This document shows, in pieces, positions 32,008 through 32,328 of a DNA stretch of 64,000 nucleotides. The DNA is from Phycisphaeraceae bacterium (GTDB lineage: Bacteria; Planctomycetota; Phycisphaerae; Phycisphaerales; Phycisphaeraceae). Position 1 is the stretch's first letter; each line of letters opens with the position of its first letter. The stretch is from positions 672,001-736,000 of the forward strand of contig OY771506.1 of NCBI GenBank assembly GCA_963674705.1, in the 5' to 3' direction. Both the position numbers and the translations under genes were made by a program. The notes under the pieces are model-generated. The model was not told where the DNA came from, ran no database searches, and was given only the letters and a program-made list of their open reading frames with translations.

Positions 32008-32047
32008 CGTATTTCCATCCTGACTGAATGCTGACTCATGGATTCTT

Positions 32048-32114
32048 GTAGGTCCGGGCCTGCCCGGACGCCGTCGATATTGTTTGCCATTTGTCCGGGC
32101 GGGCCCGGACCTAC
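32048..32114. repeat. GTAG-type REP doublet (inverted pair)
   Basis: GTAGGTCCGGGCCTGCCCGGAC ... GTCCGGGCGGGCCCGGACCTAC, 1 mismatch in 22. Confidence 0.8.
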
Positions 32115-32158
32115 GCTTGGTTACTAATGGCTAAAGGCTAACAGCTAATGGCTATCTA

Positions 32159-32188
32159 ATAAAAAAGCCGCCCGGTGAGGGACGGCCG
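32159..32188 (-). terminator. Attenuator terminator of the thrS leader
   Basis: Minus strand GCCGTCC-CTCACC-GGGCGGC-TTTTTTATT. Confidence 0.8.
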
Positions 32189-32216
32189 CGTTTTTCTGCA
32201 AGGGTTCTTACCCCAC

Positions 32217-32291
32217 CTAGCAGACCACGGCCCTCCCGCCGGTAGTGGCGGTGGTCGTCGTAGTCGCGGTGGTGGTGCTGATCCGGTTCAT
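32217..32291 (-). CDS. Thr-rich attenuation leader peptide MNRISTTTATTTTTATTGGRAVVC (thrL-like)
   Basis: 24-aa ORF with 10 Thr codons within 12 positions, upstream of thrS and followed by a terminator; N-terminus resembles E. coli ThrL (MKRISTT...). Confidence 0.88.
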   Translation of the reverse strand: MNRISTTTATTTTTATTGGRAVVC

Positions 32292-32300
32292 AGCCTGTAA

Positions 32301-32328
32301 AGGGTACATCGGATATCCGAGCCGTCAA
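32301..32328 (-). promoter_or_regulatory. Candidate sigma70 promoter of the thrS leader (TTGACG-N16-TACCCT)
   Basis: Minus strand ttgacg gctcggatatccgatg taccct, 9 nt before the leader ATG. Confidence 0.45.

Follow-up and report, generated by a model that had tools for sequence, protein, structure and literature searches.

The window, the whole stretch of 64,000 nucleotides analysed here, carries on its minus strand a single-copy thrS gene (32007-29908) for a threonyl-tRNA synthetase (ThrRS) of 699 amino acids, identified by TIGR00418 (636.6 bits, cut-off 383.65). Read along the minus strand, the region consists of a TTGACG hexamer, 16 nt, a TACCCT hexamer, 9 nt, a small thrL-like leader ORF, a GC hairpin with a U6 tract, a spacer and thrS. 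The leader ORF, MNRISTTTATTTTTATTGGRAVVC (32291-32217), has 24 codons, 10 of which encode Thr, and lacks a Shine-Dalgarno (SD) site. All ten Thr lie within codons 6-17, and the single Ile, at codon 4, stands ahead of the run. The leader is single-copy according to a DNA search in the genus. Contigs from sequencing runs (four of six runs), from which transcript starts or ends are not readable, include one that covers the stretch without any difference, and may represent its source, and two that have the leader with six changes each.

Three segments of the leader transcript are involved in alternative pairings. Segment 1 (32241-32276) is the run of Thr codons (codons 6-17), which in folds of the untranslated RNA pairs with segment 2 to give a protector hairpin. 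Folds and pairing within the genus identify segment 2 (32220-32237, codons G19-C24) and segment 3 (32179-32199) as the 5' and 3' arms of an antiterminator, in which GGGAGGGCCGTG (32237-32226) faces CGCGGCCGTCCC (32190-32179) with 11 of 12 positions paired, the helix being extended inwards by TCTGC/GCAGA (32224-32220 with 32199-32195). The last 9 nt of segment 3 double as the 5' arm of an intrinsic terminator (32161-32187, -13.7 kcal/mol) with an 8-bp stem and a 6-nt loop (32187-32166) followed by U6 (32166-32161), and the 3' end of the transcript is predicted to fall near 32161-32158. The first-pass annotation had pointed out the Thr-rich ORF with no Ile in its run, the hairpin with U6, the pairing of the leader's 3' segment with the 5' arm of the terminator and the identity of the downstream gene, and all of these are present at the positions given. 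The spacer from terminator to thrS measures 154 nt (209 nt from the leader stop to the thrS start), and an SD-like AGGA of thrS (32018-32021) lies apart from the attenuator. The spacer also contains repeats. Directly after the terminator lies an array of TTAGCNN heptamers (32124-32154), of which the genome contains 86 with at least three units and other genus members many copies; between terminator and thrS lies a REP-like palindrome (32048-32114, -48.6 kcal/mol), the 13-nt arm of which has 20 exact copies in the genome, and which is missing from G004 and from a contig of run X4.

Conservation was examined in 61 genomes, the own genome and 60 relatives of the same order, of which 58 have thrS and 57 gave an anchored upstream region, G022 being left out because its N-terminal hit is absent. 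A Thr-rich ORF was defined as one within 600 nt upstream with no fewer than 6 Thr and a Thr share of 30% or more, a threshold chosen after the first 30 loci had been inspected. The genome has 73293 small ATG-started ORFs, 106 of which reach the same Thr content, so composition alone proves nothing; position and conservation decide. Conservation in relatives, on which the first-pass annotation had made its proposal depend, was found: a Thr-rich ORF precedes thrS in 26 of the 57 genomes, a count which, the genomes being kin, is no statistical test, while 31 relatives are without a leader at this threshold. The antisense strand of the same regions gave 0/57, and other amino acids reached at most 8/57 (Arg). 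The leader occurs in five of the six families of the order (f1 14/34, f2 5/6, f3 0/6, f4 5/5, f5 1/5, f6 1/1), and start codon, frame and stop are maintained in all 26 leaders. Thr accounts for 255 of 555 non-start codons (46%) and every other residue for no more than 9%; Ile is nearly absent (8/555), which supports a sensing of Thr only. At one locus (L078:22-150) a Thr leader with terminator lies about 720 nt from thrS with two small ORFs between, as if genes had been inserted under the attenuator.

Within the genus the leader is found in 10 of 11 members. In the alignment of these ten every gap within the ORF preserves the frame, and third codon positions are the most variable in the Thr run (majority fraction 0.74 versus 0.87 and 0.92). 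The eleventh member, G003, retains the upstream sequence and nests among carriers in the ThrRS tree. At its locus (L007, about 1080-1260) CTG replaces ATG, five Thr codons are scattered, the frame crosses the U tract and a matching terminator stem is missing; this is a decayed copy, by which one genus member has naturally lost the attenuator. In G030 (L049) an Asn/Thr-rich short ORF, MKLNRNKMTNNTNETA, occupies the leader's place about 375 nt before thrS and is perhaps a decayed or re-tuned copy.

The range beyond the order was assessed with an even draw of 121 genomes from the phylum, 115 of which have thrS; eight had already been examined, the best-scoring 62 of the others were read and 45 were left unread. 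One of these 62 was positive (G061, of the same family), and a Thr-rich leader before thrS was found in 0/61 Planctomycetota genomes outside the order. Upstream DNA of 300 nt or more was available for 71 of 80 named thrS loci, and two of the 71 pass the Thr threshold, both titled Phycisphaerales; four Phycisphaerae records and one Anaerolineae record show Thr leaders that are weaker or longer and have U-rich tails. In many non-planctomycete records the match starts 50-85 residues into the query, which leaves less true upstream DNA. An Anaerolineae (Chloroflexota) locus, L129:660-860, has, ahead of thrS, a 34-codon leader containing 9 Thr codons together with a terminator, and also switches in the fold. 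In a quick ThrRS tree of 41 rows (L111 and L129, shorter than 500 residues, were dropped from 43 intended) the enzyme of the window groups with records titled Phycisphaeraceae and Phycisphaerales. The deepest split of this clade has leader carriers on either side, and 9 label changes are seen, of which strong branches force 6 or more. The simplest reading of this distribution would be an old origin of the leader and repeated loss; alternatively, it may have been gained repeatedly.

A promoter-like arrangement is conserved in front of the leaders. In the window a predicted -35 box (TTGACG, 32323-32328) and a predicted -10 box (TACCCT, of the form TAnnnT, 32301-32306) are separated by a 16-nt spacer. 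A TAnnnT box was found within 4-12 nt ahead of the ATG, and ending 5-11 nt from it, in 21 of 25 leaders, compared with 5.0% of 5000 random ATGs, and a -35-like hexamer (at least 4/6) lies 15-18 nt from it in 14 of 25 leaders versus 0.7% of random ATGs; the close TAnnnT box is absent in four leaders. A strict promoter scan returned 0 sites because TACCCT fits TATAAT at only 3/6 positions, and the promoter assignment rests on conservation instead. A 4-nt SD match precedes the ATG in 0 of 25 leaders, and thrS starts, located roughly, have such a match at 18 of 26 loci. In the window, transcription is likely to start around 3 nt ahead of the leader ATG (near 32294), and judging from the sequences leader transcripts in general likely start 0-5 nt before theirs; for leaderless leader peptides of the Actinobacteria type this distance is 0-3 nt. 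With a promoter box so near the ATG and no SD site, the leader is thus likely translated almost leaderless. A longer ORF from a start at 32309 (30 amino acids) was rejected, as such a start would fall within the predicted promoter and ahead of the -10 box. Two loci, L029 (G023) and L045 (G005), have longer 5' regions where, by eye, the TGA of a short frame overlaps the leader ATG, and a ribosome hand-over is possible there.

The effect of ribosome position on the terminator was evaluated by moving a modelled ribosome along the leader one codon at a time and folding the RNA beyond it at equilibrium, the process itself being kinetic; the ribosome cover was set by us at 9 or 12 nt past the A-site codon. 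The window leader without a ribosome has a P(terminator) of 0.918, with segment 1 on segment 2. With the A site at Thr6, Thr10, Thr13 or Thr14 the value is 0.000-0.023 and segment 2 lies on segment 3, while with the ribosome at the stop codon it is 0.916, which is the difference between Thr run and stop that the first-pass annotation had implied. At Thr16-17, P(terminator) is 0.36-0.93, and these codons are predicted to be non-regulatory because a ribosome stalled there covers the antiterminator arm. A regulatory role for the Thr run, also part of the earlier proposal, is consequently retained for Thr6-Thr14, the predicted sensing window, and not for Thr16-17. If a switch is defined as a P(terminator) below 0.5 at the middle Thr and above 0.5 at the stop, 19 of 25 homologous leaders switch in equilibrium folds and six (G016, G034, G037, G044, G045, G057) do not. 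When the intervening RNA was shuffled by dinucleotides (60 shuffles per locus), a mean of 10.6% of the shuffles fell below 0.5. The shuffles of the window leader itself average a P of 0.53, so its terminator is easily disturbed, and 0/60 are as low as the real sequence. A hairpin with a U-rich tail was detected by script in 25 of 26 leaders, and in the folds the untranslated state terminates in 21 of 25. Among five further Phycisphaerales-type leaders one switches, one does so marginally (at two codons only) and three never do.

Pairing was also followed across lineages. In the ten genus members the antiterminator pairs hold in 85.4% of cells, compared with 32-52% in slid controls. The antiterminator shows four two-sided changes in the genus, all from G009, and the terminator stem shows none among genus members, and covariation at the genus level is thin. 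In families f2, f4 and f6 the arms differ in sequence and segment 2 falls on or behind the stop codon, yet most of these leaders switch in the folds; a switch kept despite different arms across families is stronger support than the covariation within the genus. As in classical leader-peptide transcription attenuators, a Thr-rich ORF stands before the ThrRS gene together with an intrinsic terminator; on the evidence of the computed folds only, antiterminator and terminator are mutually exclusive, and a stall at the regulatory codons is needed to free the antiterminator.

A loose genome-wide scan for leaders with terminators gave at least 187 rows, mostly noise. Instead, 25 selected genes, argS, gltX, glyQS and pheT not among them, were inspected. 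The ileS gene is preceded by an Ile-rich leader, MSAELLISIAEIIIDSPVKR (G000:C1:1451174-1451022, minus strand), with a GC hairpin and U6, located 10 nt behind a TATAAT. Of 30 ileS loci retrieved, 25 could be anchored, and 12 of these have an Ile-rich ORF upstream of the gene, compared with 4/25 in antisense at the loose threshold used; in 9 of the 12 loci a hairpin with a T run is seen by eye; the ileS leader of the window genome shows no switch in the equilibrium fold. Small ORFs were also found in the window genome upstream of valS (MMYVTRRTRSVAVI, 3 Val, G000:C1:1465382, plus strand) and of a trpS-like gene (MVLIGSNISANSWRWRCCA, 2 Trp, G000:C1:3988516, minus strand), both 6-7 nt behind a TAnnnT box and both without an obvious U tract downstream. 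The candidates for Thr biosynthesis (hom, three thrC-like genes and five amino-acid kinases) have no Thr-rich ORF within 450 nt upstream. Upstream of one thrC-like gene lies a terminator-bearing sequence (G000:C1:3636600-3636790, plus strand), which presumably resembles a SAM-I riboswitch. The conserved promoter-like TTGACG-16-TAnnnT, the missing SD site, the Ile-rich leader at ileS and the lack of such leaders at the Thr biosynthesis genes are all new relative to the first-pass annotation.

In our reading, to which we assign a probability of about 0.85, a conserved and previously unannotated leader-peptide transcription attenuator that senses Thr only controls thrS. Such a Thr-only stalling attenuation had been put forward in the first-pass annotation and gains support from the presence of the leader in five of six families, from the rarity of Ile and from the ribosome folds. 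ORF, hairpins, gene identity and conservation are its observed basis, to which the three folds are a computed addition, and from these we infer where transcription starts, that the leader is translated, that termination occurs and that it responds to Thr. Transcription would begin about 3 nt before the leader ATG, and the ribosome would load without an SD site. With ample Thr-tRNA it would reach the UAG and cover segment 2, the terminator (3:4) would form and transcription would stop near 32160. A ribosome stalled on Thr6-Thr14 would leave segment 2 free to build the long antiterminator with segment 3, and RNA polymerase would enter thrS, a shortage of charged tRNA-Thr thereby switching the gene on. 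In an untranslated leader, segment 1 would lie on segment 2 and the terminator would form by default.

A Thr-sensing leader might also act on the translation of thrS, by opening of its start site or by ribosome hand-over, rather than on termination, and the weak U tail in some homologues (family f4, G016) would agree with this. However, the distance between leader stop and thrS start is long (209 nt), thrS has its own SD match at most loci (18/26), the accessibility of its AGGA stays at 0.36-0.40 in all three ribosome states, the spacer varies in length and holds a repeat insertion in the window genome, and the window has a full U6 tract. Translational control is therefore unlikely in the window genome, and we regard this explanation as improbable overall. 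The folds bear on a further question, as a stall anywhere at codons 4-15, including Ile4, Ser5, Ala9 and Ala15, abolishes the terminator, and most untranslated leaders (21/25) terminate, both of which would suit a switch that reports ribosomes slowing down in general, or how often leaderless initiation occurs, and not Thr-tRNA specifically. Such unspecific reporting is nevertheless very improbable given the 46% of Thr codons with no other residue above 9%, a target gene that encodes ThrRS itself, and an ileS gene that carries an Ile-rich leader instead.

The absence of an SD match before any of the 25 leader ATGs, and of a promoter in the strict scan, could be taken to mean that the ACN run acts as RNA without being translated, bound by ThrRS, by tRNA or by some other protein, beside a leaky terminator. 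This we consider highly improbable, as all 26 leaders retain their start codon, frame and stop, variation is greatest at third codon positions and T-box models find no match, while the promoter spacing accounts for the missing SD site. A chance trinucleotide repeat next to an ordinary terminator, which the 106 equally Thr-rich small ORFs of the genome by the same threshold might suggest, has a negligible probability and is refuted by the recurrence of the leader at the same position before thrS in 26/57 genomes and in both lineages that part at the deepest split in the order's ThrRS tree.

If the Thr-only attenuator is accepted, termination in the untranslated state (21/25 leaders) has the consequence that read-through would need initiation plus a stall. 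A wider, joint reading would be that Phycisphaerales use SD-less, near-leaderless attenuators on synthetase genes (thrS, ileS, perhaps valS and trpS) and not on the matching biosynthesis genes, and that thrS output needs leaderless initiation on nascent RNA as well as the Thr stall; we offer it tentatively and with rather more doubt than belief. Were it true, thrS would be a natural reporter of transcription-translation coupling on a leaderless mRNA in Planctomycetota. The predicted 5' leader of 0-5 nt would in any case offer a compact test case for attenuation through leaderless initiation, and natural variants exist within the order, where the arms come in two layouts, the leader has apparently been lost repeatedly and one copy (G003) has decayed.

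The E. coli thr leader reads both Thr and Ile. The enterobacterial thrL attenuator (RF00506; TIGR02077, NF007329) has the same order of Thr-rich leader, protector, antiterminator and terminator; it governs thrABC, whereas the window leader would govern thrS, is almost free of Ile and is without an SD site. The best Rfam match is indeed RF00506 (Thr_leader) over all 118 model positions, with 28.4 bits against a gathering threshold of 55 (E 0.0077), and the best NCBIfam match of the leader peptide is TIGR02077 (thr operon leader) with 19.1 bits against a cut-off of 22.95. By these cut-offs the leader is outside both families, which is why it stays unannotated. Since only 1 of 18 homologous loci matches Thr_leader (E up to 5; best 30.9 bits) and the first five leader residues differ among genus members, the likeness to the enterobacterial thrL is likelier to reflect convergence than common descent, and homology was judged unlikely on these grounds. 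In the E. coli pheM-pheST system ribosome-stalling attenuation controls a synthetase gene by its own charged tRNA. The principle is the one proposed for the window leader, for another amino acid and in another phylum.

A literature search, with subscription journals and supplements outside its scope, returned no report of such control of thrS in Planctomycetota. Attenuation before thrS in other phyla was reportedly predicted by Lopatovskaya et al. in 2010. In the portions of a survey of leader genes that were available, those of Planctomycetes are mentioned only statistically and 'thrS' is absent (PMC4833913). The novelty is lower than assumed in the first-pass annotation, as a study of Streptomyces lividans TK24 describes leaderless leader peptides before thrS, leuS and trpS (PMC8079986). 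The S. lividans thrL-thrS arrangement places a leaderless leader peptide before the synthetase gene, as predicted for the window leader. Its thrL has two Thr codons and one hairpin, according to the authors without a U-rich stretch, while leuL2 of leuL2-leuS has a hairpin and a stretch of U downstream (PMC8079986); the Phycisphaerales leaders, by contrast, have 7-14 Thr and a full terminator/antiterminator pair. With a textbook mechanism and such close precedents the surprise is limited.

Other bacteria regulate the same gene by different means. E. coli thrS is described as subject to translational repression by ThrRS (PMC3858243) and Firmicute thrS as being under T-boxes, with the only planctomycete genome surveyed being without a T-box (PMC2494555); the T-box models of Rfam likewise have no match in the window (E up to 10) or in 18 loci (E up to 5). 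Switching of sensing systems at synthetase genes has been described for hisS (PMC2965389). ThrRS repression and T-boxes act on the same target as the leader and respond in effect to the same signal, charged tRNA-Thr or free enzyme. The Phycisphaerales attenuator would then represent, in a phylum with little mapped RNA regulation, a third control of thrS beside the translational repression of E. coli and the T-box of Firmicutes.
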